Shown: positions 42,820 through 58,572 of the stretch, piece after piece
How positions within the stretch are numbered: the stretch's first letter is position 1
Layout of the letters: every line of letters begins with the position of its first letter
DNA from: Escherichia phage dw-ec
Reading direction: 5' to 3' (one strand)
Length of the DNA stretch: 64,000 nucleotides
Sequence record: OL739525.1
Made by a program: the position numbers and the translations under genes
The notes under the pieces: model-generated
The model's input: the letters and a program-made list of their open reading frames with translations, nothing else
Database searches by the model: none
What the model was told of the DNA's origin: nothing

Positions 42820-43492
42820 GTGCTAGTGCCTCCTCATAGGAAATTCGGATTTTCCCATTTTTAATATCCTCTAAAGATGCTTTATATTCTTCCCAGTTAA
42901 TCCCGATAGCAGCTTCTTTCTCTTCTTTTGTCAGATTAGCAAAAGGCATAGGATTGTTTCCAAAAACATCGTCTGGGTGGATATAAGCCATGATACGAAG
43001 TGGACAAGGTGTTGCCTGAATACCATGATTCAAACCAGCAGCTTGTAAACGGTGTCCCCATTCAGCATCTTCAAAACCATAACCATGAGTGTAAGGACGG
43101 AAATAACCCATCTTCTCAACAACGGCACGAGAATACATTGCAAATTGACACATTGCAAGTTCCCAGAGAATAACTTCTCCTTTGCTTCCAACAACTTTAT
43201 CTTTGAAGTACTCCGGCATACCAAAGAAATCCCATCCTCCAGAGACAGCTTGATCTACAAAATATGTTTCCCATCCCTCCATGACTGGGTAGCAATCGTC
43301 GTCAAAAATAAACCAATAATCATAACCTTCTTCATAAAACTGGTGCATAAGTTCATTCCTGGCATAAGCTACACCTTTACGGTCTGGATCGTTGAATACT
43401 CGAAAATCTGCACGTGGATCTGTTACAAGGTAGTCTTTAAGTGGACGGACACCTACAGTGATAACACCCACTCCGATTTTAATATTTTCCAT
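42809..43492 (-). CDS. glycosyltransferase, GT-A fold (putative)
   Basis: 227 aa with DxD-type FIFDDDCYP and HGYGFEDAEWG motifs. Confidence 0.5.
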   Translation of the reverse strand: MENIKIGVGVITVGVRPLKDYLVTDPRADFRVFNDPDRKGVAYARNELMHQFYEEGYDYWFIFDDDCYPVMEGWETYFVDQAVSGGWDFFGMPEYFKDKVVGSKGEVILWELAMCQFAMYSRAVVEKMGYFRPYTHGYGFEDAEWGHRLQAAGLNHGIQATPCPLRIMAYIHPDDVFGNNPMPFANLTKEEKEAAIGINWEEYKASLEDIKNGKIRISYEEALAHVK

Positions 43493-43500
43493 TTTCTCTC

Positions 43501-44064
43501 CTAAATAGTTTTACTGTGATCATGACAGTGTAATAAATGATGTATAGACCGTTGAGGATTTGTTTGACCTAATCTGTAAATGTGAAACAGATACATTCCC
43601 CGCATCAATCCTAACCTCTTCCCTTTTTCATGTAAAGTGCGAGAGAAAATTAAGTCGAATTGGATAGATTTTTCTTCGAAAGGAATTTCATTCCACAAGG
43701 ATTTTCTAAAAAGCAAAAAGAAACCTGCTAGAGGTGTTCCGAAAGGAACTTCTTCAACACTCACTTTATGATATTCTCTTGCAATCTTAGCATATTCTAT
43801 ATGGTTTAGAATATCTGGATCATCGTTAATTTGGTTAGAGAAAAGCTGATAACCACTGCCTAACCTGTTACAAGTTGCACCTATTACATCAAAAGGTGGG
43901 TTTGACATAACAAGCTCTTCAAGCATAGATGGTTGATCAGGTAGGAGGAACATTGTATCGGTATCTCTTAAACACACCCAACTATCATCTGGAAGAACGG
44001 CAATGGCTTCATTGATAGCCTTGCCGATATTTCCTGTCAGATAGGGAGTAATATAATAAATCAT
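43501..44064 (-). CDS. possible glycosyltransferase (GT-A-like)
   Basis: 187 aa. N-terminal YYITPY...LRDTDTMF could be a Rossmann-type strand plus DxD; weak. Confidence 0.3.
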   Translation of the reverse strand: MIYYITPYLTGNIGKAINEAIAVLPDDSWVCLRDTDTMFLLPDQPSMLEELVMSNPPFDVIGATCNRLGSGYQLFSNQINDDPDILNHIEYAKIAREYHKVSVEEVPFGTPLAGFFLLFRKSLWNEIPFEEKSIQFDLIFSRTLHEKGKRLGLMRGMYLFHIYRLGQTNPQRSIHHLLHCHDHSKTI

Positions 44065-44080
44065 TCTCCCCTCCGTTATA

Positions 44081-44272
44081 TTAACTGTCGGCTACAATCC
44101 CGCGTTTAATCATTTCCTGTTGGATTTGGATGACACGATCTCGTGCTTCCATGTATTCTTTAAAAGATTCTTGAAGATGGTCACGAGCTACGTCTCGTAG
44201 CTTAATCAGTTTGTCGTTTGTCACTTCTTGAAGAGAGATTTCGCCAGTTTCATTGGTCCCAAGCGTTTTCAT
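44081..44272 (-). CDS. hypothetical small helical protein
   Basis: 63 aa ORF. Confidence 0.4.
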   Translation of the reverse strand: MKTLGTNETGEISLQEVTNDKLIKLRDVARDHLQESFKEYMEARDRVIQIQQEMIKRGIVADS

Positions 44273-44480
44273 TTACAACCTCCTTAATAGCTACTGCACA
44301 GTTCTTACAAATACATTGACCTTTGTTCTTAGAAATTTCAATGTAAGGTTCATTTTCGTTTTCTCCGCGTCGTGAGTCGTATATTACCGTATTGAAGCAG
44401 ACAACGCAAATGTTTTTAATAACGACATATTTTTGCACTTTCTGTTTAGTGCGAAAATTGACTTCAATGACTTCTCCCAT
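44250..44480 (-). CDS. small zinc-ribbon protein
   Basis: Track ORF 44250-44528. The ATG at 44480 (RBS GGAGA) overlaps the upstream stop as TGATG; protein has CVVC...CICKNC. Confidence 0.4.
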   Translation of the reverse strand: MGEVIEVNFRTKQKVQKYVVIKNICVVCFNTVIYDSRRGENENEPYIEISKNKGQCICKNCAVAIKEVVNENAWDQ

Positions 44481-44764
44481 CAGTGAATCTCCCCTAAAAT
44501 GTTGTTTTGAGACATTACTGCGGAGCATTCTACAGCATCATGAGTCCTTGCAAAACGCTCCCACAACACAGCATCTACTTTAAGAACCATACAAGGATAA
44601 ATACTGTCGTTGATCATGTCAATGCTATATTTATCTACATCCTTTTCACCTTCCATAAACAAAGTAGCATATGCTTCTAAATGCTTACGGGTGTAGTATA
44701 CATCCTCTTCAGTAAGACCGACAACCAGGTAACTTGCTACAACAACAGTATTATCTTCTTGCAT
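44480..44764 (-). CDS. hypothetical protein
   Basis: Track ORF 44480-44827. The internal ATG at 44764 has RBS AAGGGGAG and avoids overlap with the lysin gene. Confidence 0.4.
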   Translation of the reverse strand: MQEDNTVVVASYLVVGLTEEDVYYTRKHLEAYATLFMEGEKDVDKYSIDMINDSIYPCMVLKVDAVLWERFARTHDAVECSAVMSQNNILGEIH

Positions 44765-44765
44765 T

Positions 44766-45287
44766 TTAACTCCCCTTTGGTAGATAGAAACCATGCACTT
44801 TATCTCGATAAACAAGACGCATATCACGTTCCCAGTGTGTCCTTATATTCCGTTTCTTGAAGTATAGAGCACCTTTAGTAACATCTAAAACAGACCGCAA
44901 TTCAGGAAAATGTTTCTCTAAATAAAGTAAACGCTCCGCTATTGCTTTTGCTTCCTGCCACTTATCTTTCTCTGTTACGTTAAAAGTTTTCGCATATGAG
45001 AATTGCCCTTTCTGGAACAAGACTCCTCTGACCGTGTTAGGGAAGTAGGTATCATTTCTTCTGTTGATTACCACATTCCCAACGGCATTCATTCCTTTTT
45101 TACCCAGACCTCGACCTTCTGCGTAAATTGCACAAGCTAATAGAATTTTATCATTATATTGCTTTGTACATTTGTGAACTACTTTAGCGGTTTTTACGTT
45201 TGCAGCTTCGGCTTTCGCCACAACAGGTGTAAATGTAAAAGCAGTTAAGGATAGTAACGCAACTGTTACAAAGTTTTTTATCAGCAA
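44766..45287 (-). CDS. SleB-type cell-wall hydrolase with N-terminal signal sequence (putative endolysin)
   Basis: 173 aa, TTG start after RBS AGGAGG. N-terminal hydrophobic signal (FVTVALLSLTAFTFTPVVAKA). Motif AIYAEGRG...GMNAVGNVVINRRND..YFPNTVRGVLFQKGQFS is typical of the SleB hydrolase family. Confidence 0.6.
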   Translation of the reverse strand: MLIKNFVTVALLSLTAFTFTPVVAKAEAANVKTAKVVHKCTKQYNDKILLACAIYAEGRGLGKKGMNAVGNVVINRRNDTYFPNTVRGVLFQKGQFSYAKTFNVTEKDKWQEAKAIAERLLYLEKHFPELRSVLDVTKGALYFKKRNIRTHWERDMRLVYRDKVHGFYLPKGS

Positions 45288-45386: not shown

Positions 45387-45989
45387 TTATGGACATTCAT
45401 ACCATTCTTTTTTACCACCGAAGGCCATCACCACATCGCAAATATCCAGACCGGCTTTACCTACACCATATGCTTTCAGCTTCCATTCCCCATCTTCACG
45501 AACCAAGGAAGCCACGTGGCAGATTGTGTTACCAGCTACTTCAGGAGCCAGGAAGTCAAAATCCAGAATTTCCACATTACGTTCGGAGTCAAAGATTTTA
45601 AGCATACCTTCAGAAGCATGACCAAAACGTTTCAGACCTGTATCATCATCAATGGTCAGAACAAAGGCAATCTCTTGTGCATCAGGAGAGATTTTAGCCA
45701 GAGTAATATCAATCTGCTCCATGCTGCCAGTCCCATCACGAACATCGTCACCAGCGAAGGTAGAACGTTCAGGATCAAACTTGTTAGCGTAGCAAACCAG
45801 ATGACGTGCAGACAGCATTTCAGGATTGCCAGCGGCATTATGACGACAAACCAGTGCACTTACATCCAGATCCAGTTTAGAATCAGATTTCCAAGAGAAT
45901 TCCAGGCGCAGTTCTTTCAGAGCCGGAGCAACTTTCTTCAGGGAAATTTTTTCGCTAGAGCCTTTTTTCAGGGAAATTTTATCAGTCAT
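45387..45989 (-). CDS. TerD-family protein
   Basis: 200 aa. Aligns by eye along its length to E. coli TerD recalled from memory: N-terminal ISLKKG..ISLKK, DLDVSALV, GDDVRDGTG, FVLTIDD, GEWKLKAYGVG. Confidence 0.7.
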   Translation of the reverse strand: MTDKISLKKGSSEKISLKKVAPALKELRLEFSWKSDSKLDLDVSALVCRHNAAGNPEMLSARHLVCYANKFDPERSTFAGDDVRDGTGSMEQIDITLAKISPDAQEIAFVLTIDDDTGLKRFGHASEGMLKIFDSERNVEILDFDFLAPEVAGNTICHVASLVREDGEWKLKAYGVGKAGLDICDVVMAFGGKKEWYECP

Positions 45990-46004
45990 CTTTTGTCTCC
46001 TCTA

Positions 46005-46274
46005 TTATTTAAGTGTAATACCAGTTACAGTCAATTCTACTTCCAAAAGCTTAGATGTGTTTTGGATTGATACTAATTGTGCATGATGGTTTAGTTCTAC
46101 AGCGGAATAATCATTCTCCCCATCGTCTACTTTTAAATAAACAATGATTTCACTAAGGTCTAAACCATTTTCGTCAAATGCATTTTCATAGACGAAAGTA
46201 TCTCCTACATCCAAATCTTTAATGGTAAGGCATCGTTTATTTACTTTTTGCTCATCAATTTCGAAGTTTAACAC
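46005..46274 (-). CDS. hypothetical protein (paralog of 47296-47574)
   Basis: 89 aa. Shares DLDVGDTFVYENAFDENGLD and a C-terminal TVTGITLK-type motif with the gene downstream of the vWA gene. Confidence 0.45.
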   Translation of the reverse strand: MLNFEIDEQKVNKRCLTIKDLDVGDTFVYENAFDENGLDLSEIIVYLKVDDGENDYSAVELNHHAQLVSIQNTSKLLEVELTVTGITLK

Positions 46275-46503
46275 TTCTTCCTCCTAATGTTATCTCCGGT
46301 TTGTATATACGAAGAATTATAGCATTTTCATTTTCTTTGTCAACCCATTCTTCATAATCGGGCCATACATGAATCTCTACTCTACTTACAATATCTTCCA
46401 TTCGCACAGTCCCAATGAAATACTCTTTGAGACTGCGCATAATGAAAGCTTCTCTCTCGCGCCAATAATTTTCTACGACTTGAGAGGCAAGCTCGTCGAT
46501 CAT
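46255..46503 (-). CDS. hypothetical protein
   Basis: 82 aa ORF coupled to its neighbours. Confidence 0.4.
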   Translation of the reverse strand: MIDELASQVVENYWREREAFIMRSLKEYFIGTVRMEDIVSRVEIHVWPDYEEWVDKENENAIILRIYKPEITLGGRSVKLRN

Positions 46504-47294
46504 TTTTTAGCACCTACTTTAACAACCCACTCTCCGAACTCTTCAGATAAGAGTTTGTCATAAAGCTCTGAATCTGTCAAGTCTAAATCTTTAATGCCAA
46601 TAAAACCAACATTATCATAAGCATTTGCCAGTTCTTTCAGGAAGCCAAACTTCTCATTACCAACGCCAACCATGAACCAATAAATAGGTTTATTCTTATT
46701 CTCTTCAATAAGACGACGAACAGCACTAGGATCACCATTCTCACCATCCGTCTGGAAGAATACAACACCAGGGGTAACGTCAGCACCTGGTTCAGATACA
46801 GCTACAACTTTTTCACGCTCTACAGACACTGTTTCAGTTTTACCAAGCAGACGATTAAAGAAGCCTTTCTTTGGAGCCTCCTCTTGTACCACTTGTTTAG
46901 TGGTAATATATTTGGTAACAGTGCCAAAATACTCATCGTAGATATCTGCCATTACAGGGGCGTAATTTGTTCCACCTCCGATACGAACATTACGCATACA
47001 TTTACCAACATAGTCATCGTAAACGTCTGCTGTTGCTGGAGTAAGCTCTTGGGAACTCGTATTGAAGGCCCACATATCAATTTGTTGATTATCGTCGAAC
47101 AGCATACCAAAAGGAAGCAGTTTACCTACAAAATCACTCACTACCCCACTAGAATATAGACCATGCATACTACCAGAAATATCTAGAGCACATGCTACAC
47201 GAAGAACAATCTTACCTTCATTCAGGTTCTTATTCTTTTTCAGAGAGAAAGCAAGGTTTTCTTGACGTTTTTTCAGGCTGATTTTCTCGGACAT
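46500..47294 (-). CDS. von Willebrand factor A domain protein (TerY-like)
   Basis: 264 aa with MIDAS-type motif DISGSM. N-terminus MSEKISLKK resembles the TerD-like N-terminus. Confidence 0.55.
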   Translation of the reverse strand: MSEKISLKKRQENLAFSLKKNKNLNEGKIVLRVACALDISGSMHGLYSSGVVSDFVGKLLPFGMLFDDNQQIDMWAFNTSSQELTPATADVYDDYVGKCMRNVRIGGGTNYAPVMADIYDEYFGTVTKYITTKQVVQEEAPKKGFFNRLLGKTETVSVEREKVVAVSEPGADVTPGVVFFQTDGENGDPSAVRRLIEENKNKPIYWFMVGVGNEKFGFLKELANAYDNVGFIGIKDLDLTDSELYDKLLSEEFGEWVVKVGAKK

Positions 47295-47295
47295 A

Positions 47296-47574
47296 TTATT
47301 TCTCCTTCTTAAGTGTAATATTGGTAACTTCTAAATCTACTTCCACCATATTTGTATCTGGTGGGATGCAATGAGTATAGCCTCGTTGTGCTAGTGATCC
47401 ATTAATACAAATCGCACTGTTTGTGGAATTTTTAATGAACACCAAGTTACGGTAGGTATCCAACCCTGCGTCTTCATAGGCATCATAATACATGAATGTG
47501 GCCCCTACATCAAGATCTTCGAAAGCAATAGGTAAATCCTGACTTTTTTCTTCTTGAATATTGAATCTAAACAC
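47296..47574 (-). CDS. hypothetical protein (paralog of 46005-46274)
   Basis: Track ORF 47296-47640. A GTG at 47574 after RBS GAGGAGG avoids overlap with the upstream gene. Shares DLDVGATFMYYDAYEDAGLD...VTNITLKK. Confidence 0.4.
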   Translation of the reverse strand: MFRFNIQEEKSQDLPIAFEDLDVGATFMYYDAYEDAGLDTYRNLVFIKNSTNSAICINGSLAQRGYTHCIPPDTNMVEVDLEVTNITLKKEK

Positions 47575-48130
47575 GCATACCTCCTCTACCAATTTTGAAG
47601 CCCAAATCGTAAGCTTCCTTAGTGATCTTTTGTAACTCACTTATAGGAAGTGTTACAAGAGGATCATCTTCTTCAATTTCCATCTTGTCATCTTCTGTTT
47701 CAATGAGAGTATTATGCACTTTGTGATAAGGGTTGTCAACACGTTTAAACTTATTCTTTTCTGTGCTGAAAAAACAATCTGGATCTTCTTCACCATCACC
47801 CCAACCTTGGTTAGGATCTCCGTCAGATTGTTCTGTAGGGATTTCACCTGTAAAGTACTCTTCCAGCACCATAGCGATACCGTCCCTTGGATTTGAGGAA
47901 TGCATCAAATCACAAACCTTACTCCAATCCATAGCCCATTCAAATCGTTCACGAACACCATTTTCATCCTCCTTTCCAGAGAAAACACAACCATAACTAT
48001 CATAGTTGCCATACATCTCTTCAATAACAACACCGTCCTTCAAAAGAAAGAGGTAGCAAGGTGATCCGTCGAAAGAAGTAGAAAGGGCAGCTTTGCCCGA
48101 TTCTTTGCACAAAAAGCTAAAACAACCCAT
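47567..48130 (-). CDS. hypothetical acidic protein
   Basis: 187 aa ORF. Confidence 0.45.
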   Translation of the reverse strand: MGCFSFLCKESGKAALSTSFDGSPCYLFLLKDGVVIEEMYGNYDSYGCVFSGKEDENGVRERFEWAMDWSKVCDLMHSSNPRDGIAMVLEEYFTGEIPTEQSDGDPNQGWGDGEEDPDCFFSTEKNKFKRVDNPYHKVHNTLIETEDDKMEIEEDDPLVTLPISELQKITKEAYDLGFKIGRGGMRV

Positions 48131-48528
48131 TACAAACCCTCCTTCAGATTATCAAGAGCTACAGTGGTTTCACAAAATTCTCCATAAGCTTTATGATGTT
48201 CCAGAAAAGCTTCGGGTCCACCCCAGTCATTATCTTGTGTATTCCAGCCATCTATAAAAGCATCTTCAATGATTGTGATCAGTTCCTGTCGAGTCAACGT
48301 AATGGTATCAGGTTTCTGCGTAGTTTCCACACGGAACCCTGGTTCTTCATAAAAACCTTTAGTTATAATGGATTCTAACTCTTCTGCATCACAGAGGAAG
48401 TAGCCACAAAGATAACACCAACCGTCATCATCTTTCATTACTTCATAAACTTCACCACTTGCCAAATTAGTGAAAAGAGTAGGGTCTGTTACTGTAAGTT
48501 TTAAAAGAATACCTGTTGGATTATACAT
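48130..48528 (-). CDS. hypothetical protein
   Basis: 132 aa ORF with overlapping start and stop. Confidence 0.45.
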   Translation of the reverse strand: MYNPTGILLKLTVTDPTLFTNLASGEVYEVMKDDDGWCYLCGYFLCDAEELESIITKGFYEEPGFRVETTQKPDTITLTRQELITIIEDAFIDGWNTQDNDWGGPEAFLEHHKAYGEFCETTVALDNLKEGL

Positions 48529-48693
48529 CTTCTTCCTCCTCTAAAATATGGAACCCGTAATTACAATAATCCTGAAAGGTTTCGTGTGCAAGATCTTCTA
48601 TATCCTCTTGAGACATATCATCTTCAATTTCGATATCCACAACCTCATTGCATCCACACCAAGCAGTTTCAATATTCACTCGTAGTATTTTCA

Positions 48694-48891
48694 TTACTCC
48701 TCCTCCTCATTGAAGTCAATATCTGCAAGGAGTTCGAATTTACGGAAGTTACGACAACCTTCATAAATATAACAATCACGACAAACTGCTAGAACACTTG
48801 GGGGATATATACCTCCCATCGGCGCGAATCGTTTTTCGTCATCATAACGGACACCAATGTCCTCATCAATTATATAGATACGGATTCTCAT
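48694..48891 (-). CDS. hypothetical small protein
   Basis: 65 aa ORF. Confidence 0.35.
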   Translation of the reverse strand: MRIRIYIIDEDIGVRYDDEKRFAPMGGIYPPSVLAVCRDCYIYEGCRNFRKFELLADIDFNEEEE

Positions 48892-50000
48892 TTACCAAGC
48901 CCTCGTTTCACAGCAGCTACCATCCCGTCTTCCAGAGATTGAACTTCATTAATATAATCAACACGAGCAGCACGGGCTTCCGTATTGATGCGGTTAGTTT
49001 CTTCCAACATCTTAACCAAGTTTTCCTGATCGTGACGCAGAGTTTCAATATCCAACACTTGACGGTTAGCCAGTGCTGCTGCTTCGATCTGATTCTGTGT
49101 GGCAAGATCGCTACCCAGTTTAATTGCCAGGTTAAATTCATCAAGAACGTTATTCTGCGTCTCTGCTGCTTTCATTTGACGTAAGCTCTCGATATACATT
49201 GAGAAGTTAGCAGAGTAAGCAGGAATAACATTATTTACTATGTTACGCGCAGATCGCATTAAGCTTGCAGAAACTTTTTGCATACCTTGTACACGCGGTC
49301 CCATTTGGACACACAGTAGGCGCAATGCTTTTAAATCTGCAATACGAATCTCCAGAAGATCCAAAGTATCTCGGATCACTTGTCGCTGTTCTACTGCATC
49401 TTCTGGAAGAGCAGCCAAAGCTTGTTCTTCTTTTTCATAGGTTGCTGTTAGAAGCTGCATATCTCGGTTCAAACTTGCAGCATATTGTCCAATAGCTTGA
49501 TGTAGCTTTTCAAGATATACCAAGGAATCTTCTTCTTTGCGAATATCCATTTGAAGGTTCTTTACCAACTCTTCAATACGGTTATTAACATTATCAAACT
49601 CCCCGAACAGGTCTTCTTTCATACCCATAACTTTTTTAATGAGTTTAGTAATACCCTTGCTTTGTTTAATAGAGTTTGGATCAAGTTGTTTTGCCTGTTT
49701 AATCAAAGCTGTAAGTCGTTCACTCATCTGATCGCCTTGATTACTACGTTGATGTTTTAACACCTCGGCATTCAAGGAACGCAAGGTTGTTCCTGCCTCT
49801 GCCCCAATCTCTTCAATCTCTTGTCGGGTCATAGAAGGCAAAACTGGAACTTCTTGCGGTGCCGCTGGTGCATAAACAGGACTGGCATCTAACACGCTTG
49901 GAGCGAATACAGATTTACTTGCATCTGTTGTTGCAGCGAATACACTCATTTCAGACTTCTTCTGACCACCAGTAGCTGCTTTTAAAAATGGACTTGTCAT
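48888..50000 (-). CDS. TelA-like (toxic anion resistance family) coiled-coil protein, tentative
   Basis: 370 aa, largely helical, of the size expected for TelA/KlaB-type proteins and flanked by TerD, vWA and TerC genes. No diagnostic motif verified. Confidence 0.4.
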   Translation of the reverse strand: MTSPFLKAATGGQKKSEMSVFAATTDASKSVFAPSVLDASPVYAPAAPQEVPVLPSMTRQEIEEIGAEAGTTLRSLNAEVLKHQRSNQGDQMSERLTALIKQAKQLDPNSIKQSKGITKLIKKVMGMKEDLFGEFDNVNNRIEELVKNLQMDIRKEEDSLVYLEKLHQAIGQYAASLNRDMQLLTATYEKEEQALAALPEDAVEQRQVIRDTLDLLEIRIADLKALRLLCVQMGPRVQGMQKVSASLMRSARNIVNNVIPAYSANFSMYIESLRQMKAAETQNNVLDEFNLAIKLGSDLATQNQIEAAALANRQVLDIETLRHDQENLVKMLEETNRINTEARAARVDYINEVQSLEDGMVAAVKRGLGK

Positions 50001-50587
50001 TCTTCATTCTCCTCTTCTGCATCTCTTATATATGGTGAAACACCGTACTCTTTAGCTACTTTAACCCAATCATCCCATTTATACAACCATAATTTTCCTT
50101 CAGTTCCTTCTTTATCTGATTTCAACCACATGTTAGGTTGCTTGCCTGGGTACATGCGATTAGGTTTACGATTATAACCTCTAACACATCTTGTCGCAAA
50201 CCTATCTACCAGAACAAGAACATATTTATACTCGTGGTTCAACGGCTCTTTGGAAGTGGCTTTAGGATTAGCCCCTAACTCTGCTGCCAGTTTTTGCCAA
50301 TGAGCACCGTGCCTACTAAACTTACCCATACAACCATCAATAGCGTGAGCAATTTCGTGCTTCATTGTATCCACGATCATATCTCTTGTAGAGTTCTTAT
50401 GCAAGTGCCAATTTACAACAACAATTTTATCTCGGTAGTTGCACCAACCGAAAGAGTTATTCACTTTGTTTCTAACACAAGCTTTATATCCTGCTTCACG
50501 TAACATGTTGTAGTAAACAGGAAAATCTTCTTTTATTTCCTGCATCACTTCCCACCACAAGAGTTGCAAGTCTCTCTCGGTATGCAT
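49997..50587 (-). CDS. SprT-like zinc metallopeptidase (putative)
   Basis: 196 aa with HExxH in TMKHEIAHAIDG...HGAHW, arranged as in SprT-family proteins. Confidence 0.5.
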   Translation of the reverse strand: MHTERDLQLLWWEVMQEIKEDFPVYYNMLREAGYKACVRNKVNNSFGWCNYRDKIVVVNWHLHKNSTRDMIVDTMKHEIAHAIDGCMGKFSRHGAHWQKLAAELGANPKATSKEPLNHEYKYVLVLVDRFATRCVRGYNRKPNRMYPGKQPNMWLKSDKEGTEGKLWLYKWDDWVKVAKEYGVSPYIRDAEEENEE

Positions 50588-50589
50588 AC

Positions 50590-51183
50590 TTACACCTTAA
50601 AAGCGAAATGCGTGGTCGTGGCTTCAAAATCAGGGCCAGATAAACTTGCACTGAAATCTGAAATATTTGTAATTAAAAAGCTTTTATGCATACCTAACAC
50701 AGCCACGCTTTCAATATCTTCTACTAACATTTCAATCATGTTAGAAACATGGCTGAACGTATAGTTTTGTTTTTTGATGGTGTAGAAAGAAAGACTCTCA
50801 CCTGCTGTATAAGATACTTCTTCAAAATCTTTAATCGTATACTGTGTCCCATCAGTAAAGAAAATGGTAGCTTTATTAGTAGCACGTTTCTTGTTTTTTG
50901 GTCCTTTTTTACGTTTACTGCGAGTAGGCAAACCGTTTGGAAATACCGTAGCTACAAATTCTTCAGGAGAAACCTCCTTACCGAAATCATAACCGTAAGA
51001 AACAGCGTCTATAAACTCGTCGTCTTCATTTTTAAAATAATGAAAATAGGGCCAATTTGAGAGATTATCGAGCATCTTATGCTCATCCACAGCAGAGAAC
51101 GTATCCCTCAAAGCACGTGTGATTTGCAAAGCATTAGGCAAACTTTTAACACCTGTAATGGAAGTACGGATAGAAATTGTCAT
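50590..51183 (-). CDS. hypothetical protein
   Basis: 197 aa ORF. Confidence 0.45.
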   Translation of the reverse strand: MTISIRTSITGVKSLPNALQITRALRDTFSAVDEHKMLDNLSNWPYFHYFKNEDDEFIDAVSYGYDFGKEVSPEEFVATVFPNGLPTRSKRKKGPKNKKRATNKATIFFTDGTQYTIKDFEEVSYTAGESLSFYTIKKQNYTFSHVSNMIEMLVEDIESVAVLGMHKSFLITNISDFSASLSGPDFEATTTHFAFKV

Positions 51184-51197
51184 TGTTTTTCTCCTTA

Positions 51198-51635
51198 TTA
51201 ACGTCGCTTGCTACGAGATGAACTCTTTTTACTTAAAGGGCTATTGTAAGATTTACGAGTTGTATAGCTACTATTTGTTTTAAAAGTTTGTCTCGGCTTT
51301 TCATAAGTTTTTATCTCTTGTTTAGGCTTACCATAAAAATTAGTTTTCGGTTTAGGTGTATTATAATGCTTATTAATAATCGTTCTGTTATCGTTATAAT
51401 CCCCACTGCTACGATTACTACCGCCACTCATCATATGCCCTAACAACATACCTGTAGCAAACTCACCAACACCGCTACTACTAGAACCGCCACCATTGTT
51501 GATAATAGTTGTATCTCCGTCAGATCCTTGTTGAGCGTATTGTTGAGGAGGTTGTTGGTATTGTGCAGGATTTGTTTCATCCTCGCAAGCTGTTAAAAAG
51601 ATACAACCAATTAAAATCAGGGCTAGTTTTTTCAT
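51198..51635 (-). CDS. lipoprotein (putative)
   Basis: Track ORF 51198-51710. The internal ATG at 51635 (RBS GAGGAAAG) gives MKKLALILIGCIFLTAC with lipobox LTAC, followed by a Gly/Ser-rich region and a basic C-terminus. Confidence 0.5.
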   Translation of the reverse strand: MKKLALILIGCIFLTACEDETNPAQYQQPPQQYAQQGSDGDTTIINNGGGSSSSGVGEFATGMLLGHMMSGGSNRSSGDYNDNRTIINKHYNTPKPKTNFYGKPKQEIKTYEKPRQTFKTNSSYTTRKSYNSPLSKKSSSRSKRR

Positions 51636-51822
51636 ATTTGCTTTCCTCGTTTTGGCTATTAATACATCTGTGTTTGAAATCTCCAGAGAAGCAATAAAGT
51701 TGCTCTCCATCTCGGTATAAACTCACTTTACTGCCGTTGATTACGCTTGTCAATACAAAAATTACAACAAACAACCCTATTGCAAAACAGATATTTTCAA
51801 ACACAACCAACAAGTATTTCAT
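51577..51822 (-). CDS. small membrane protein
   Basis: 81 aa with an N-terminal hydrophobic helix; its 3' end overlaps the lipoprotein gene start. Confidence 0.35.
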   Translation of the reverse strand: MKYLLVVFENICFAIGLFVVIFVLTSVINGSKVSLYRDGEQLYCFSGDFKHRCINSQNEESKYEKTSPDFNWLYLFNSLRG

Positions 51823-52169
51823 TTTAAAAATACCTCATCATCAGTTTCATTATCCCAGAAGAACAAATCCCAACCATTCGGATCATTCCATTTGGCTGCT
51901 GGAGAAGTCCATATTTGTTCAATATCAATATTCAAAACTTCACCGTTTCGTTTTGAAACAGCTTTAGTTAATTCCCAACGAGATACAGGCTCTACTTCTC
52001 CTGAACCACTTCCACAACAAGCTACCACATTAGGAGGCAAATTAATCGGATCTTTGGTCACAATCATAACGCTTACCCCAGGGTAAACTTTTGAAAGATA
52101 ATCTGAAATGTAATCCACATCACCAGGTAAATCCCAAACAAGTTCTTGAATTTCATCAAAATTATTCAT
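51819..52169 (-). CDS. hypothetical protein
   Basis: 116 aa, RBS AGGAGAG. Confidence 0.45.
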   Translation of the reverse strand: MNNFDEIQELVWDLPGDVDYISDYLSKVYPGVSVMIVTKDPINLPPNVVACCGSGSGEVEPVSRWELTKAVSKRNGEVLNIDIEQIWTSPAAKWNDPNGWDLFFWDNETDDEVFLK

Positions 52170-52187
52170 AAGTCTCTCCTATAAAAT

Positions 52188-52205
52188 AGCCTCCCGAAGG
52201 AGGCT
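52188..52205 (-). terminator. hairpin terminator after TerC gene
   Basis: AGCCTCC-TTCG-GGAGGCT on the minus strand, then AUUUUAU. Confidence 0.5.
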
Positions 52206-52211
52206 CATCTA

Positions 52212-53186
52212 TTAAATAGCAGCTTCTTCTTTTTCAGGGAAGATAAAGCTTGCAATAACACCAAGAGCTAATGTGCCTAGAACAATCATCAGACTTACGT
52301 TAGGGGAAATATCATGCGGGAGGAATGACCACTTGGCATGAAGTGTTTCACCGAACGGGTGGTACATAAGTTTAGCACCAACAAACACCAGAACCACAGC
52401 AACAGCTTTCTCTAAGTGAACCAGATATTTCACAGCTACACTCAACACAAAGAAAAGTGCACGTAAACCAAGAACAGCCATCAGCATTGCAGAATAAACT
52501 AGCAGAGGTTCTTGTGTCACACCGATCACAGCCGGAACTGAATCAAAAGAGAAGACAATATCTGTAAGCTCAATAACAAACACACAAAGAAGAGCAGGAG
52601 TTGCATATTTAATACCATTCTTAATGGTGATGAACTTTTCACCATCCAGTGCATTGTGCACAGGCAGAACTTTACCTACTAAACGAACAGCCCAATGCTT
52701 AGAGTAATCAATATCCTCTTCTTCGTCACCACCTTTGATGATAGCCACGGCAGACCAAGCTACAATCAAACCGAACAACACTTGGACCGACCAATGAAGG
52801 TTAAACAAAGCGGTCCCTGCTGCAACAAAAATACCTCGGAAGACAATGGCTCCTGCAATCCCCCAAAGTAGAATCTTATGTTGGAGATGTGTGCTCTTAA
52901 TTCCAAAGCTTGCAAAAATCGCCATGAACACCATCAGGTTATCTACAGAAAGACTCTTTTCCAACACATAGCCACTTAGGAAAAGCGCGGCAAACTCTTT
53001 ACCATGTTCTACCCAAATGAATGCGTAATATCCTAAAGCTAAAGCAATCCAAAAAACAGACCAAAGCAAAGCAGATTTAATTCCAATTTCTTTATTCTCT
53101 TTATGACCAAAGAAATCGATACCAATAGACAATGCCAAAATACCAACTAAAACAACTACATCAATAATTGGGAAACCGAGTTGCAT
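52212..53186 (-). CDS. TerC-family integral membrane protein
   Basis: 324 aa, multiple TM helices. Characteristic GYVLEKSLSVDN and ELTDIVFSFDSVPAV motifs. Confidence 0.7.
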   Translation of the reverse strand: MQLGFPIIDVVVLVGILALSIGIDFFGHKENKEIGIKSALLWSVFWIALALGYYAFIWVEHGKEFAALFLSGYVLEKSLSVDNLMVFMAIFASFGIKSTHLQHKILLWGIAGAIVFRGIFVAAGTALFNLHWSVQVLFGLIVAWSAVAIIKGGDEEEDIDYSKHWAVRLVGKVLPVHNALDGEKFITIKNGIKYATPALLCVFVIELTDIVFSFDSVPAVIGVTQEPLLVYSAMLMAVLGLRALFFVLSVAVKYLVHLEKAVAVVLVFVGAKLMYHPFGETLHAKWSFLPHDISPNVSLMIVLGTLALGVIASFIFPEKEEAAI

Positions 53187-53203
53187 TCTTTTCTCCTCTC
53201 TTT

Positions 53204-53222
53204 GCGGGGAACTATTCCCCGC
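53204..53222 (-). promoter_or_regulatory. 5' leader hairpin upstream of TerC gene
   Basis: GCGGGGA-ACTAT-TCCCCGC between the putative promoter and the RBS AGAGGAGAA. Confidence 0.35.
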
Positions 53223-53234
53223 TTCATGTGATAT

Positions 53235-53262
53235 ATCTTACTCTTTTTAAGAACTATGTCAA
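53235..53262 (-). promoter_or_regulatory. sigma70-like promoter candidate (TTGACA-N16-TAAGAT)
   Basis: On the minus strand, -35 TTGACA at 53262-53257 and -10 TAAGAT at 53240-53235. Confidence 0.4.
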
Positions 53263-53265
53263 CAC

Positions 53266-53487
53266 TTATTTTGTTGAATGAGAGGAAAAGATTCCTCGTA
53301 ATACCGCCAGAATAAACGAAACACAAACCACGGTCCAGAAGGTTACTGGGACAGTGATATCTGCATGACCCATAACTTCAGCAACATAGTTGTAAGCCAG
53401 CAACAGTAACCAAGCTGGAATCAAACTAAGCATAAAAGCAATAACAAAAAAGCTTACCACTGCAACAATACCTGCAAAAACACCCAT
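53266..53487 (-). CDS. small membrane protein (two TM helices)
   Basis: 73 aa, two hydrophobic segments. Confidence 0.4.
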   Translation of the reverse strand: MGVFAGIVAVVSFFVIAFMLSLIPAWLLLLAYNYVAEVMGHADITVPVTFWTVVCVSFILAVLRGIFSSHSTK

Positions 53488-53499
53488 ACTAATCTCCTC

Positions 53500-53973
53500 T
53501 TAAAGTTTATAAATAGTCACATCGTGACCTGTTTTTACTAAAGTTTCTTCAATCATCACTTGGATGATAGCCCAATTACCTCCAGCATATCCAGCGCCAA
53601 TCATAGGTAAGCCGATCTTACATTTTTGGTCACGGAGAAGCAAATCATTAGCCATAGCTATTAGTGCATCGTAAAGTGCATCATAGTCCAACTGACGACC
53701 TTTAGCATTGTATCCATAACGGTATTGCCCGTATAGATTATATACCAAAGGGTCTGATTGTTCGTCTGGCACCCCTAAACTAAAACAACCTAGTTTACTT
53801 TGATCACCAGCCATTGTGTCTAAGTCTGCTGCATATGCGTAAGGAAATGCTTGTTTGATTTGTGGGGCAATACCTGCCCCCATATTACACATACAGTTGC
53901 AACAATGAGCAATAACAGTTACTTCACCTGCTTTAGCGGCATCAATAAGATTACCTCTTTTCATTTTAAGCAT
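53500..53973 (-). CDS. macro-domain-like protein (tentative)
   Basis: Track ORF 53500-54078. The ATG at 53973 follows RBS AAGGAG. Segments VIAHCCNCMCNMGAGIA and KIGLPMIGAGYAGGNW resemble macro-domain motifs; a LOG-like fold is an alternative. Confidence 0.35.
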   Translation of the reverse strand: MLKMKRGNLIDAAKAGEVTVIAHCCNCMCNMGAGIAPQIKQAFPYAYAADLDTMAGDQSKLGCFSLGVPDEQSDPLVYNLYGQYRYGYNAKGRQLDYDALYDALIAMANDLLLRDQKCKIGLPMIGAGYAGGNWAIIQVMIEETLVKTGHDVTIYKL

Positions 53974-53986
53974 TTTTAGCTCCTTA

Positions 53987-54814
53987 TTACAGAATGTGTT
54001 GTTTTGTGTAACGATCCAAGAATTCAAAGTTTTCAGCATACTTTGAAATTCGGTTGTAACCTTCTCCCAAACATCCAAAGAAAAGTTGCTCTACATAGTA
54101 ATGTGGCAATTGGCTAAGAATGATTTTGAAGTCTTCATGATTTTGGCCCATAAGATACTTAATAGGACGAACAAGACACTGTGCATCACGTTCTTCATTA
54201 ATCATTTTAACAAACGCTTCTGGTGTATTAATGTAGTTAAAATTCAGTTTAGCTTCGGTATCTGCTTGATTACCTTCGTATTTTGCAAAATACAAGAAGT
54301 AAACATCATTTTTAACTTGATTTTCATCAAGGATCTCAATCAGTTTGTCTTCATGCGTTCCAGTGATATTTACATCATCAATGAATACAAGCTTCTTATC
54401 ACCCCAGAATTCTTTGTTGCAGTAGAATGTATCCCCATCAATAAGTTTCTTACGACTAGCTTTATCCAAGAAACCATAATCGTTGATATAGCTAACTTTA
54501 CGATGAATAATGTCCAGTTCTGCTGAACGACCTTGATCATATTGTGATTGCAACATATTAAAATAATTAATAAAATGATCTGTCATCATTGTTGCAGCAT
54601 TATGCACATGGTTATAAGGAGAAGGAATGATAACAAATTGTTCCCCAATATGTTTCATTGCCACTTGAGCAAAAAACTGAAGTGCCAATTCTTTACCCAT
54701 ACGACGCGCAGCTTGGTTACTACCAAATTTCAATTTTGAATAATCTTGGATATCAAAAGTAGCAGTTTCCAGGTCATCAAATTTATTTGCAAAAATTTGA
54801 GTTTGATTACGCAT
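53987..54814 (-). CDS. phosphoribosyltransferase-fold protein (PRTase or PRPP-synthetase-like)
   Basis: 275 aa. PRPP-binding-type motif KKLVFIDDVNITGTHEDK. Confidence 0.55.
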   Translation of the reverse strand: MRNQTQIFANKFDDLETATFDIQDYSKLKFGSNQAARRMGKELALQFFAQVAMKHIGEQFVIIPSPYNHVHNAATMMTDHFINYFNMLQSQYDQGRSAELDIIHRKVSYINDYGFLDKASRKKLIDGDTFYCNKEFWGDKKLVFIDDVNITGTHEDKLIEILDENQVKNDVYFLYFAKYEGNQADTEAKLNFNYINTPEAFVKMINEERDAQCLVRPIKYLMGQNHEDFKIILSQLPHYYVEQLFFGCLGEGYNRISKYAENFEFLDRYTKQHIL

Positions 54815-55463
54815 TTACAATTTCTCCTCTTTTAAGTTTCTCTAGTAAGTCGTTAGGGTTCTTAATATGACAGAAGTTAAATCCTAAGTCAACACATTTT
54901 CCATCATATTCTTCACTATCACCTACATGCAACACTTCGTGCCCTAACAGAGGGATCGGAGAATACGTGAGCGTGCGAGCAAAGAATCGCGGATCTGGTT
55001 TACAAAGTAAAGCTTCATCCGAGAAATGGGTGAACTCAAAACAATTCCAACTATCAAACTTACAAGCACGACGCAGGATATCCCCTGATATGAAGTTGGT
55101 ATTGCTCTTAATACTCAAATCATAACGCCCCGAAAGATACAGCAAGTACATCGGCAGATCCACGGCTACGTGTGGTGGAAACTTAAGGAACCACTGTTCA
55201 CACTCGAAACGAAGCTTTGCAGACTTCCAAGGCGTTATCCCAAGTTCAGAACCAAGTCTTTCCCAGGCGTATGCTGCACACTCGGCTTTGCCTTGAAGTG
55301 CTGCATTATCCAGTTCCTTTTTGATCTTTTTATAAGCTGCTCTTGCTTCCACTTCCGTAATATCTCCATATTTTGCGATAGTCCAGGCTCGCATGTCTGC
55401 GTAATTGGAGTTTGCTGTGATCAGTGTGTTCCATACATCAAAAGAGATATGTTTAATAGTCAT
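54807..55463 (-). CDS. HAD-superfamily hydrolase (putative)
   Basis: 218 aa. Motif I-like SFDVWNTLI, LCKPDPRFF and HVGDSEEYDG. Confidence 0.55.
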   Translation of the reverse strand: MTIKHISFDVWNTLITANSNYADMRAWTIAKYGDITEVEARAAYKKIKKELDNAALQGKAECAAYAWERLGSELGITPWKSAKLRFECEQWFLKFPPHVAVDLPMYLLYLSGRYDLSIKSNTNFISGDILRRACKFDSWNCFEFTHFSDEALLCKPDPRFFARTLTYSPIPLLGHEVLHVGDSEEYDGKCVDLGFNFCHIKNPNDLLEKLKRGEIVNA

Positions 55464-55464
55464 A

Positions 55465-56070
55465 TTAAGCCCACCATGCGTCTAAGTTAAGATTACTGTC
55501 CACTACCACTTGTTCTATGTGGTAGCCTTTTATCTGTATCCCACTATTCAAGAGCATATCATACGCTTCATTGAAACGCAACTTATCTTCTGCGGAATAT
55601 AAGCGAGCATTATAAAATCGGTAATCAACTTCTTCAGCATTAGAAGAAATACGGAAGAAGTTTGTTTCTACTTCGGGATCACTTGCTGAAGTCTTAATGT
55701 GAACTTCTCCGTAATTTTCTTTACTTAGATCCATGAAAAGAACACAGGCAACATGTTTAAACATTCGTTCCAGCTTGTAACGAACAACATTGAAACCTGC
55801 ATTCTCAAGTTTTTCTACACACTGCAACATTAAAGTAGTGTCGAGATCGCTTTGATACTTTGTTAACATACGATCACGTTGAGACTTTGTATCCCGATGT
55901 AAATCAATTGTTGTGCATTTGGCACCAATAATCTTAGCTGCTTTCATCAACTCTTCAGAACTAACGTTAGATAAAGTAAGATGAAAATGGGCTTTCCACA
56001 CTTTTTTAGCAGGGACACCAAAAGATTTATCCCCACTATTCGGCATGTTGACTACTACACTATGTTGCAT
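55465..56070 (-). CDS. hypothetical protein (possible divergent 2H phosphoesterase)
   Basis: 201 aa. One clear H-x-T-x motif (AHFHLTLSN); the second (VHIKTS) is poor. Confidence 0.4.
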   Translation of the reverse strand: MQHSVVVNMPNSGDKSFGVPAKKVWKAHFHLTLSNVSSEELMKAAKIIGAKCTTIDLHRDTKSQRDRMLTKYQSDLDTTLMLQCVEKLENAGFNVVRYKLERMFKHVACVLFMDLSKENYGEVHIKTSASDPEVETNFFRISSNAEEVDYRFYNARLYSAEDKLRFNEAYDMLLNSGIQIKGYHIEQVVVDSNLNLDAWWA

Positions 56071-56310: not shown

Positions 56311-56761
56311 TTGCCGTTTTGGTCCATAATCTTTGATTATCTGACCCTCTGAAAGGTTTTGTAGTTGGATTGTTTATTTCATACTTTCCGTCTACAATAA
56401 TGTCAACAAGATTTTTAATATACAAAGGCACTTCCTCAAAAGTATATCCTGTATACACCATTATATCTTTGCTTGACCCATAAACGTCTCTAACCTTTTC
56501 TATAAGGTTTTTAACATTGTAAATATTCTGCGGATCTAATGGCTCTCCTCCTAAAATTGTTAAACCTTTTACAAACGGTCTTGACAAATCTTTTAAAACT
56601 TGCTCTACATTTTCGTGAGTGAACGGTTTCCCATAAGAATAAGACCAGGCTTTTTGGTTAAAACAGCCACGACAACCGTGGCTACAACCACTAACCCAGA
56701 GGGAGCACCTAACTCCCTCACCATTAATAAGATCTACAGGTTCATATCCTGCAAAATTCAA
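56291..56761 (-). CDS. nrdG: anaerobic ribonucleotide reductase activating protein (radical SAM)
   Basis: 156 aa with CSHGCRGC radical-SAM cluster motif; coupled to nrdD by an ATGA overlap. Confidence 0.8.
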   Translation of the reverse strand: MNFAGYEPVDLINGEGVRCSLWVSGCSHGCRGCFNQKAWSYSYGKPFTHENVEQVLKDLSRPFVKGLTILGGEPLDPQNIYNVKNLIEKVRDVYGSSKDIMVYTGYTFEEVPLYIKNLVDIIVDGKYEINNPTTKPFRGSDNQRLWTKTASGWQSD

Positions 56762-58572
56762 AGATGTTTCTCCCTTTGCAAAACTTCCTGCATTTTACCT
56801 TTGTTGTAAGGCCGTGAATTAGGGGCAGAAAGATACCCTGATACACGTCTAACTACAGAAATAGTTTCTTCTTCATGGTTGCCACAATCAGGACACTCAA
56901 ACCCTTTAGCCGTTGCCTTAAATTCTCCATGAAAACCACACTTAAAGCATTGATCCACGGGCTGATTAATACCAAAATAGTGAATATGTTCATAAGCGTA
57001 GTCTACTAAAGTCTCCAAAGCTTCTAAGTTATTCTTTAAGTTTGGTGTTTCGACATAACTTATGTTACCACCATTGCTAATCTGTGCAAAACCTGCTTCA
57101 TAATCCCATTTTTCAAAAGGATTTGTTACCAACCATACAGGTTGGTGAAAAGAGTTGGTAAGATAGTCTCTTTCTACCAAACCTGGGTATTTTTCATTTA
57201 AAGCTGTTGCAAACTTATAACACAAGGATTCTGCTGGAGTTCCATAGAGACTAAACGCCAACTTAGATCGTTCTTTAAACACAGCACACACATCTTTCAT
57301 ATGTTGCAGAATGCTTTTACCAAGTTCCTTTTTATCTTTTTCTTCTGGATAAAGGATTTCCAAAGCTTCGGCAAGACCTACATAACCAATACTAATAGAA
57401 GCATAACCACCTTCAAACAAAACACCAATTTCATCATTGGCATTTAAACGCGCTAAAGCCCCTTCCATGAAAAGAATAGGGTTTTCAGATGCTTTGGTAT
57501 GTCTGATACGGTTTACACGTAACATGTGAGCATCGTAGGCTATCTCCATATGTTTATTAAGAAGATCGGTGAAAGATTCTCCTTTACTTCTCGCTTCCGC
57601 AGCGATCAGAGGTAAGTTGATAGAAACTACTCCAAGGTTGAATCGTCCATCGTATTTTTCTCCTTGTTCGGTGGCATAGTACGACAAAAAGGAACGACAA
57701 CCCATACTCGTAACAGTGCCATCTGCTGATCCCGTAACTTCTTTGTTCAAAGGAACAGAAATAAAATCTGGATAAATACGATCAGCACAACATGCCAAAG
57801 CTTGTTGCTTAAGGTCATAGTTAGGATCACTAGGTTTCATGTTAACACCTTCTTGTAAAAAGAAAATAACTTTAGGGAATACAGGTGTTACATGATCTTT
57901 GCCTAGACCGTTACTATGAACTTTAAGATAGTTAGCTGTGATCATTCTGCCAAAAACAGAGGTATCCAGACCCATACTGATTGTAATAAAAGGAGATTGT
58001 CCATTAACACTCATTAAAGTATTAACCTGATACAAGAGAGTTTGCATAGCATCATATACATCTTGTTCGGTCATTTCTAGTGCTTCTTTCCTTGCATAAC
58101 AACCGTAGCGACGTTTGGTTATCTCCATGTTTTTAAGGAAACTAGCTTCAACATAAGGACTAAGACCTTTATCAATGTGCGCACACGTCTGACCTCCATA
58201 CTGACTGGAGGCAACAGCTTGGATGATTTGAGTTAGCACTGTGGTAGCTACCCCAATAGATTTTGGTTTTTCTATCTGTGCGGCTCCGATCTTAAAGCCA
58301 TTCTCTAACATATCTTGATAATTAACAAGACAACAGTTTGTAAGAGGAGAGAGTAGATAATCTAAGTCGTGAATATGTCCAAAACCTTCTGTATGCCATT
58401 CTGACAAGTTTTTTGGCAGTATCTGTGTCATTGCCATATGTTTGCTTAAAATCCCCGCCAAGAGATCCCTATGCGTGTTAACGAGGTGGGAAGGTTTGTT
58501 TGCATTCTCTCTAGTGTATGTTTCTGAAGTGCGATCTAAAAAAGAAAAAACATCTTGGTACAAATCTTTCAT
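56758..58572 (-). CDS. nrdD: anaerobic ribonucleoside-triphosphate reductase (class III)
   Basis: 604 aa. C-terminal Cys4 zinc site (CFKCG...CPDCG) followed by the glycyl-radical motif RRVSGYL. Confidence 0.85.
   Translation of the reverse strand: MKDLYQDVFSFLDRTSETYTRENANKPSHLVNTHRDLLAGILSKHMAMTQILPKNLSEWHTEGFGHIHDLDYLLSPLTNCCLVNYQDMLENGFKIGAAQIEKPKSIGVATTVLTQIIQAVASSQYGGQTCAHIDKGLSPYVEASFLKNMEITKRRYGCYARKEALEMTEQDVYDAMQTLLYQVNTLMSVNGQSPFITISMGLDTSVFGRMITANYLKVHSNGLGKDHVTPVFPKVIFFLQEGVNMKPSDPNYDLKQQALACCADRIYPDFISVPLNKEVTGSADGTVTSMGCRSFLSYYATEQGEKYDGRFNLGVVSINLPLIAAEARSKGESFTDLLNKHMEIAYDAHMLRVNRIRHTKASENPILFMEGALARLNANDEIGVLFEGGYASISIGYVGLAEALEILYPEEKDKKELGKSILQHMKDVCAVFKERSKLAFSLYGTPAESLCYKFATALNEKYPGLVERDYLTNSFHQPVWLVTNPFEKWDYEAGFAQISNGGNISYVETPNLKNNLEALETLVDYAYEHIHYFGINQPVDQCFKCGFHGEFKATAKGFECPDCGNHEEETISVVRRVSGYLSAPNSRPYNKGKMQEVLQREKHL

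Follow-up and report, generated by a model that had tools for sequence, protein, structure and literature searches.

What would a virulent coliphage do with genes of the Ter (tellurite-resistance) families? The question is raised by a minus-strand locus at positions 45387-55463 of the stretch of Escherichia phage dw-ec analysed here (sequence record OL739525.1; all 64,000 nucleotides of it are called the window), where the original prediction, made from the letters alone, had named a TerD, a vWA, a TelA-like and a TerC protein next to a phosphoribosyltransferase (PRTase), a HAD hydrolase and a macro-like protein. In bacteria, ter operons are known for tellurite resistance, phage inhibition and colicin resistance, and how ter and telA act has been a puzzle ever since a tie between tellurite resistance and phage inhibition was first reported in the late 1970s. 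The cluster is already annotated in GenBank and discussed in papers, so it is real yet not new, and its interest is that of an experimentally tractable instance of an old question.

Ter-family proteins of a Phapecoctavirus

All seven of the named open reading frames (ORFs) are present on the minus strand (Table 1). Profile hidden Markov model searches gave significant matches for TerD, TerC, TelA, the vWA protein and the PRTase, whereas the HAD protein stayed below and the macro protein at the Pfam cut-off, both being strengthened by matches to solved structures. TerD matches the Klebsiella TerD structure 2kxt (E 1.5e-15), and TerC is a full-length member of the NCBIfam family TIGR03718 (319 bits against a cut-off of 246). 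The vWA protein had been described as TerY-like; it does carry an intact MIDAS motif (D38-x-S40-x-S42, within DISGSM at residues 38-43, as read from the sequence), but its type is that of TerF. The occurrence of Ter genes in a coliphage is thus confirmed at the level of profile or structure evidence, and chance is excluded by the E-values as well as by a gene order that phi92, a member of a second genus, and related uncultured contigs share with the window.

Megablast of 45387-56070 found 62 phage records with at least 80% query coverage, the best being Escherichia phage ETEC-TG (99.4%) followed by phAPEC8 (98.2%), and because of these matches the window is assigned by sequence to Phapecoctavirus (Stephanstirmvirinae), in the phAPEC8 group of lytic coliphages; at ~150 kb, this phage is not a jumbo phage. 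In the map onto ETEC-TG, the plus strand holds structural genes as far as ~32.3 kb, and beyond this point follows a minus-strand block with DNA polymerase, primase/helicase, four glycosyltransferases, a SleB-type endolysin, the Ter region, NrdG/NrdD, ribonucleotide reductase-like genes and a UvrD-type helicase; the sign of the GC skew flips at ~32 kb, in agreement with the strand switch. The stretch between NrdG and TerD, both included, comprises 23 tightly packed genes in one direction, every one with a Shine-Dalgarno sequence and many overlapping by 1-8 nt.

The gene order NrdG-orf74-(orf201)-HAD-PRTase-macro-small membrane protein-TerC-...-lipoprotein-...-(SprT)-TelA-...-vWA-TerD-...-endolysin is common to Phapecoctavirus, Justusliebigvirus phi92, Klebsiella-type relatives and uncultured contigs, with PRTase identities of 63-79%, and the envelope-type neighbours (the lipoprotein and small transmembrane proteins) are conserved along with the block. 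Synteny is therefore maintained in related phages rather than the genes being scattered housekeeping homologues.

Much of this has been seen before at the level of annotation. The GenBank record of SKA64 labels these genes TerD, vWA-TerF-like, TelA, SprT-like, TerC, Macro_Poa1p-like, PRTase and REG-2-like HAD, and the labels in other records include 'tellurite resistance', 'general stress protein 16U' and also 'orotate phosphoribosyltransferase'. For ZCKP1, a Phapecoctavirus whose TerD and TelA are 100% identical to those of the window, "four tellurite-resistance genes" were reported, and colicin resistance and superinfection exclusion were proposed (PMC6141743). Phage Ter systems, among them those of Acinetobacter phage vB_AbaM_ME3 and of Caulobacter jumbo phages, were treated by Iyer et al. 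(2021), whose account includes PRTase and HAD enzymes and proposes competition with superinfecting phages (PMC7824862); Klebsiella phage phiKp34 is another published case (PMC8386662), as are the phiPsa phages, and recent Phapecoctavirus genome papers merely list 'tellurite resistance' genes. The systems of ME3, the Caulobacter jumbo phages, phiKp34 and ZCKP1 have in common with ours the families (TerD, TerC, TerF-type vWA and TelA, with PRTase and HAD in ME3), a virulent tailed phage and the idea of exclusion. In contrast to our analysis, these reports did not dissect the Phapecoctavirus block, the autonomy of the HAD-PRTase pair, its macro neighbour or the separate TerC signals. What is added here is the near-invariance of the pair, its Ter linkage in at least five lineages, the signals around TerC, the class of the macro protein, and the absence of TerB together with a single TerD.

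As many isolates of the genus grow on E. coli K-12 MG1655 and the phage is a virulent coliphage, this compact version of the Ter set is a tractable place to test the roles of TerD, TerC, TelA and PRTase-HAD. Members of the genus that infect K-12 include anhysbys (MN850648) and tuntematon (MN850618). Phapecoctavirus phages are also candidates for therapy and biocontrol, where the effects of 'tellurite resistance' genes on the host phenotype are a recurring regulatory question.

Table 1. Genes and putative transcription signals of the minus-strand block, in order of position in the window.
Feature	Position	Strand	Evidence and remarks
TerD-domain protein, 200 aa	45387..45989	-	PF02342, E 3e-28, above gathering score
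orf89, small ORF, 89 aa, function unknown	46005..46274	-	phmmer 3e-11 to orf114; conserved in phi92
orf82, small ORF, 82 aa	46255..46503	-	conserved in Phapecoctavirus loci; no Pfam match
Perfect sigma-70-type consensus, TTGACA-16-TATAAT with TG	46316..46343	-	12/12 matches, consensus match only; upstream of orf89 and TerD, inside orf82/orf89 overlap
vWA protein, TerF C-terminal type	46500..47294	-	PF10138 (vWA-TerF-like), E 1.6e-37
orf114, small ORF (92-114 aa)	47296..47640	-	phrog_11278; paralogue of orf89
Conserved protein, 187 aa	47567..48130	-	phrog_14928; no Pfam match; phi92 homologue, E 1e-96
Three small overlapping ORFs, 132, 57 and 65 aa	48130..48891	-	overlaps of 1-8 nt; translationally coupled
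TelA, toxic-anion-resistance family, 370 aa	48888..50000	-	PF05816, E 3e-33, 115.7 bits against cut-off 30, residues 59-361
SprT-like zinc metallopeptidase (HEIAH)	49997..50587	-	PF10263, E 4e-9; stop overlaps TelA start by 4 nt
Conserved protein, 197 aa	50590..51183	-	phrog_27550; weak homologue phi92 gp179
Probable lipoprotein, lipobox LTAC after internal Met start, with Q/S/G-rich, basic tail	51198..51710	-	sequence; conserved, E 3e-21
Two small ORFs, 81 aa with transmembrane helix and 116 aa	51577..52169	-	phrog_27498
Terminator-like GC-rich UUCG hairpin (AGCCTCCTTCGGGAGGCT then T-run)	52188..52205	-	7 nt past TerC stop, in 42-nt gap
TerC/Alx-family integral membrane protein, 324 aa	52212..53186	-	PF03741, E 3e-40
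Promoter-like site, TTGACA-16-TAAGAT	53235..53262	-	in 79-nt gap before TerC; consensus match only
Small membrane protein, 73 aa	53266..53487	-	conserved with cluster; phi92 homologue, E 2e-23
Macro domain protein, 157 aa, SCO6735/BT1257/TARG1 class	53500..53973	-	PF01661, 22.3 bits against cut-off 22.0
Type I phosphoribosyltransferase, PRTase_3 (ComF-like), C-terminal helical domain	53987..54814	-	PF15610, E 2e-41
HAD-superfamily hydrolase, PH1421/HDHD3-like	54807..55463	-	overlaps PRTase start by 8 nt
orf201, 201 aa, upstream neighbour of HAD	55465..56070	-	phrog_22504; invariant HxHxT and ExHxK motifs

The HAD-PRTase_3 pair and its linkage to Ter genes

A Ter-associated module for a nucleoside-like metabolite, with PRTase, HAD, ATP-grasp and C-C lyase enzymes linked to TerD, was reportedly put forward by Anantharaman, Iyer and Aravind in 2012. 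A summary of that model is quoted in a passage of PMC7824862. The phage agrees with it in having a PF15610 PRTase and a HAD linked to TerD but holds the two-gene core only, as no ATP-grasp or C-C lyase tailoring enzyme was found among the block ORFs scanned against Pfam. The PRTase, a member of what Pfam calls the 'PRTase ComF-like' family (PF15610), has the type I PRTase fold with an intact phosphoribosyl pyrophosphate (PRPP)-binding loop. The Pfam match of the HAD protein lies below the gathering score (21.2 against 26.4), but a profile built from 14 homologues finds the HAD structure 2om6 with E 7e-21, motifs I-IV being aligned, and HDHD3 with 1e-10; the nucleophile Asp, the Ser of motif II, the Lys of motif III and the GDxxxxD of motif IV are invariant. 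In motif I (FDVWNTL) the nucleophile is kept and the residue at Asp+2 is Trp, as in PH1421 and HDHD3.

Window proteins were searched by phmmer against the ORFs of 46 fetched loci (L numbers below denote fetched loci), with Ter neighbours scored within 10 kb. In all but two of these 46 loci, that is, in 44, PRTase_3 is directly preceded on its 5' side by the HAD gene. Physical linkage of the pair to the TerD family was observed in the window and in L005, L017, L021, L022, L024, L025, L045 and L046, while about half of the lineages do not have it within this distance. The arrangements are TerC-TelA-like-...-TerD-...-vWA-...-HAD-PRTase (L005 and L025), TelA-vWA-...-DUF475-HAD-PRTase-TerD (L017 and L021), TelA-...-HAD-PRTase-vWA-...-DUF475-TerD with a YqeY-like ORF between TelA and HAD (L022), TerC-vWA-TerD-TerD-...-TelA-HAD-PRTase (L024) and, in two contigs of metagenome-assembled Bacteroidota genomes, TerD-TerD-...-HAD-PRTase. 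DUF475 is a TerC-superfamily protein with an SLSFDNA motif. At least five separate phage lineages show tight linkage of the pair to TerD, vWA, TelA and either TerC or DUF475, which supports functional coupling. The same tendency is seen on a broader scale, as tblastn against 50,697 phage records found this type of TerD in 148 and PRTase_3 in 156, and the two sets are nearly equal in taxa (Escherichia 105/104, Brevundimonas 7/7, Caulobacter 4/4). The profile matches bear out the Ter-family assignments of the original prediction, and PF15610 membership together with the linkage in several unrelated phages bears out its connection to the Ter/PRTase/HAD association of comparative genomics.

DUF475 replaces TerC in three phage lineages (L017 7749-8771; L021 8192-9190; L022 12756-13802), and in L021 it is the gene immediately upstream of HAD, whereas in L017 one small ORF separates the two. 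The ~300-aa proteins beside TerD in L005/L025, L017/L021 and L024 were considered as a fifth conserved component and rejected, since jackhmmer detected homology within sub-lineages only and none to window ORFs.

Stand-alone two-gene HAD-PRTase_3 units occur in Rhizobium, Sinorhizobium and Ensifer genomes (L033-L044; L047) without nearby Ter genes, and on the symbiosis-type plasmid pRL10 the pair lies beside repA (L047 11670-13143; NC_008381.1 107669-109142). Genes for an NMN-adenylyltransferase (NadM)-type nucleotidyltransferase and Nudix genes adjoin the pair in three unrelated phage loci (L011 6283-6855; L025 10835-11920; L026 5863-6795), which hints at a link of the pair to NAD-type nucleotide metabolism.

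Possible roles: envelope exclusion, metals or independent modules

On the strength of plasmid ter phenotypes and comparative genomics, we tentatively favour an envelope-protection and superinfection-exclusion module that is possibly tuned by a nucleoside-like product of the pair, a reading that we find plausible but still short of probable. TerC/Alx would act in the inner membrane with TelA and the TerF-type vWA protein beneath it, accompanied by the small membrane proteins and the lipoprotein, and the single TerD would sense a ligand or a metal. PRTase_3 would join some base to PRPP, and the adjacent HAD would convert the product, by dephosphorylation or another step, into a nucleoside-like molecule; this would be the ligand of the module, with TerD as its possible binder. 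Expressed with the neighbouring replication and nucleotide-metabolism genes, the module would protect and remodel the envelope of the infected cell, and later-arriving phages and pore-forming colicins would be excluded. Whereas the families, motifs, gene order and recurrent linkage of the pair to Ter genes are observed, we infer the biochemical product, the interaction of TerD with a ligand, the timing of expression and the exclusion phenotype.

An exclusion function is proposed because of the known phenotypes of ter operons. For plasmid ter genes, phage inhibition and colicin resistance are credited to Taylor and Summers (1979) and Whelan et al. (1995), as cited in PMC6141743. The phage set has TerC, a TerD domain, a vWA protein like the C-terminal part of TerF, and TelA in common with terZABCDEF (IncHI2 R478, E. 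coli O157, Klebsiella) and with telA/klaA-klaB of RK2. It differs from terZABCDEF in lacking TerB, in having a single TerD where that operon has four or five paralogues (TerZ/A/D/E/F), in keeping TelA and Ter genes together, and in the small ORFs (~14) interspersed among them.

A bolder version, which we regard as unlikely, is that the pair makes an uncharacterised nucleoside-like molecule that is the ligand of the phage TerD and vWA/TelA/TerC proteins, a self-made chemical switch by which the envelope would be remodelled against competitors or membrane-acting defences. If this were true, a signal or effector of wide distribution could so far have escaped recognition, because other phages and rhizobial plasmids carry the pair by itself.

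Several observations speak against an exclusion module tuned by the pair. The phage TerD is single in the window (phmmer of TerD against all six-frame ORFs), while bacterial ter operons hold several paralogues, and no TerB match was found among the 20 block ORFs scanned against Pfam. The Ca-binding motif of TerD is only partly retained, as GDNRTGEGDGDDE aligns to GDD.VRDGTGSMEQ in the comparison with 2kxt. Because the general acid at Asp+2 that is typical of phosphatases is replaced, dephosphorylation by the HAD protein is an assumption. Moreover, XaC1-like T4-type phages, Rhizobium phages, CcrColossus and rhizobial replicons including pRL10 carry the pair but no Ter gene within 10 kb of it. 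TerC may form a transcription unit of its own, because a promoter-like and a terminator-like signal flank it. Finally, no published experimental test of any phage Ter gene was found in the literature. In jumbo phages, too, the pair is found free of Ter genes. We read HAD-PRTase_3 as an autonomous two-enzyme module that is coupled to Ter proteins repeatedly but not obligatorily, in agreement with the association proposed from bacterial genomes.

The signals around TerC bear on two other explanations. They lie in the only two internal gaps longer than 40 nt in the run from NrdG to TerD, 79 nt upstream and 42 nt downstream of TerC. Promoter-like sites are no more numerous in the region than expected from shuffling, and no transcriptome data for Phapecoctavirus were found in the literature.

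The function could be metal homeostasis rather than exclusion: TerC/Alx would export or deliver Mn2+ or other divalent cations, TerD (a Ca2+-binding fold) and the MIDAS of the vWA protein would sense or buffer metals, and metal pools would be adjusted or envelope and secreted proteins metalated. The TIGR03718 family to which TerC belongs is named 'TerC/Alx family metal homeostasis membrane protein', the flanking signals would suit a TerC unit of its own, the MIDAS is intact, TerD is homologous to the Ca-binding TerD of Klebsiella, and parts of the literature describe TerC-family metal chaperones/exporters (MeeY, PMC12096827) and a role of K. pneumoniae terC in zinc resistance (PMC12054061). 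However, TelA and the recurrent PRTase-HAD linkage would be left without explanation, the acidic Ca-binding motif of TerD is degenerate, and no obviously Mn-dependent phage enzyme was identified nearby. Neither was a yybP-ykoY Mn2+ riboswitch found upstream of TerC, no Rfam family reaching its gathering score anywhere in the window, and a Mn riboswitch as the regulator before TerC was rejected on this ground. We consider the metal explanation to have a low probability. In comparison with E. coli Alx and B. subtilis MeeF/MeeY, the phage TerC matches TIGR03718 over its full length but lacks that riboswitch and nucleotide similarity to E. coli alx; because of the latter (blastn against 5,426 E. 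coli genomes gave no match), a recent capture of the host alx was rejected.

Alternatively, there may be no single system but three independent modules placed side by side in a packed early region: HAD-PRTase for nucleotide metabolism, with or without macro, TerC alone, and TelA...vWA-TerD. The pair alone in many phages and on pRL10 would fit such a view, and so would the bracketing of TerC and the unrelated, phage-specific small ORFs, SprT-like protease and lipoprotein scattered among the Ter genes. TelA by itself reaches further, its 224 phage records extending to Pseudomonas Otagovirus-like phages and to the jumbo phages PBECO4 and RaK2, with some groups outside the PRTase_3 matches, and a crude neighbour-joining tree of the PRTase interleaves Ter-linked and pair-only loci. 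Nevertheless, compact sets recur in separate lineages, namely DUF475-HAD-PRTase-TerD (L017/L021), TelA-YqeY-like ORF-HAD-PRTase-vWA (L022), vWA-HAD-...-PRTase (L025) and TelA-HAD-PRTase (L024), and co-occurrence holds at the genome level even when the genes are apart, as in CcrColossus, where TerD and the PRTase are both present at a distance of 27 kb. Such independence of the modules seems quite improbable to us.

The macro protein, possible counter-defence and neighbouring genes

The macro protein had been listed with the cluster in the original prediction. Its full macro fold is supported by solved structures, with SCO6735 (5e3b) at E 2.5e-12 and BT1257, the Thermus DarG macro domain and human TARG1 also matched (range 2.5e-12 to 3e-6), and it matches phrog_335 at 8e-54. 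Membership in the cluster fared less well: the gene adjoins the pair in this phage subfamily only, being 6-8 kb off or absent elsewhere in the 46 loci, and as a protein of the SCO6735/TARG1 class it may be a separate de-ADP-ribosylation factor. In HMMER alignments the phage YGQY stands opposite PTKK of DarG and ITKK of TARG1, so that Gly-Gln takes the place of the catalytic Lys, as in SCO6735/BT1257. Because of this replacement the protein is not a DarG-type enzyme in the strict sense, and a true DarG mimic was rejected; the DarT-binding C-terminal domain of DarG is likewise absent from it. It is probably an independent de-ADP-ribosylation enzyme or ADP-ribose-metabolite hydrolase.

The original prediction had suggested takeover or counter-defence, for which we found no specific support, the published proposal being superinfection exclusion and colicin resistance. 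In such a scenario the cluster would block membrane-acting abortive-infection effectors, reverse ADP-ribosylation through the macro protein, or make or destroy a nucleotide-type immune signal through PRTase-HAD. In its favour, the macro protein matches the PADLOC DarG macro model (5.6e-10), and orphan DarG-like anti-DarT factors, that is, antitoxin mimics, are experimentally established in phages (PMC11481870, PMC13309987). The neighbouring orf201 matches PADLOC 'AbiEi' and has a distant homologue beside the anti-CBASS gene Acb1 and near NADAR genes. In addition, the pair-only phages place the dyad among RNA-repair and NAD-type genes: in XaC1-like T4-type phages it lies among genes for RNA ligase (Rnl), 2H, the CCA-adding enzyme, Nudix and PTH2, and in Rhizobium phages it adjoins an NMNAT/Nudix-type gene. 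On the other hand, the macro protein without the catalytic Lys of DarG/TARG1 groups with SCO6735/BT1257 and neighbours the pair in this subfamily alone, and nothing connects TerD, TerC, TelA or vWA to a known immune pathway. A counter-defence role for the cluster is, in our view, doubtful. None of the Ter proteins matches any PADLOC defence or anti-defence model.

Of the other genes, orf201 is probably not part of the Ter system and is possibly an independent anti-defence candidate. It matches two PADLOC 'AbiEi' models over the full length of the models at ~1e-13, but the identification as AbiEi was set aside as doubtful, since these models stand without a Pfam AbiEi match or an AbiEi-like fold. 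The homologue directly before Acb1 is 36% identical and lies 4 kb from a NADAR gene (L048 10001-11021; L049 10001-10549), and relatives by structure were found in two phages, ME3 (UniProt A0A172Q0B7) and phiM12, as well as in giant viruses. Because both orf201 and the SprT-like gene are missing from phi92 (the latter as seen in the 46-locus comparison), they are lineage-specific; the SprT-like protease and the macro domain are probably lineage-specific additions with separate roles. The phi92 homologue of the probable lipoprotein, gp180, is annotated with a signal peptide. Of the two paralogues, orf89 immediately precedes TerD and orf114 the vWA gene, and one GenBank record labels orf89 'RNA ligase', a label that nothing in this analysis supports.

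Adjoining the Ter block on its downstream side are four glycosyltransferase genes in a row and, after them, a cell-wall hydrolase (endolysin) of the SleB type that has a signal-like segment at its N-terminus (window 40919-45287, minus strand), which together point to modification of surface polysaccharides by the phage. The cluster was also found in records labelled as Campylobacter phages B15, C3 and A110a, Acinetobacter phage ABPW7 and Pseudomonas phage PsgM04F (MG065650, MG065656, MG065689, OP562383, OR584014), with DNA identity of 98.4-98.9% in B15 and ABPW7 and protein identity of 65-91% in C3, A110a and PsgM04F, and the host labels of these records look doubtful. Further upstream, NrdD is one intact ORF of 604 aa (window 56758-58572, minus strand), whereas its phi92 counterpart (L009 5218-7296) is annotated as split and joined ('spliced variant').

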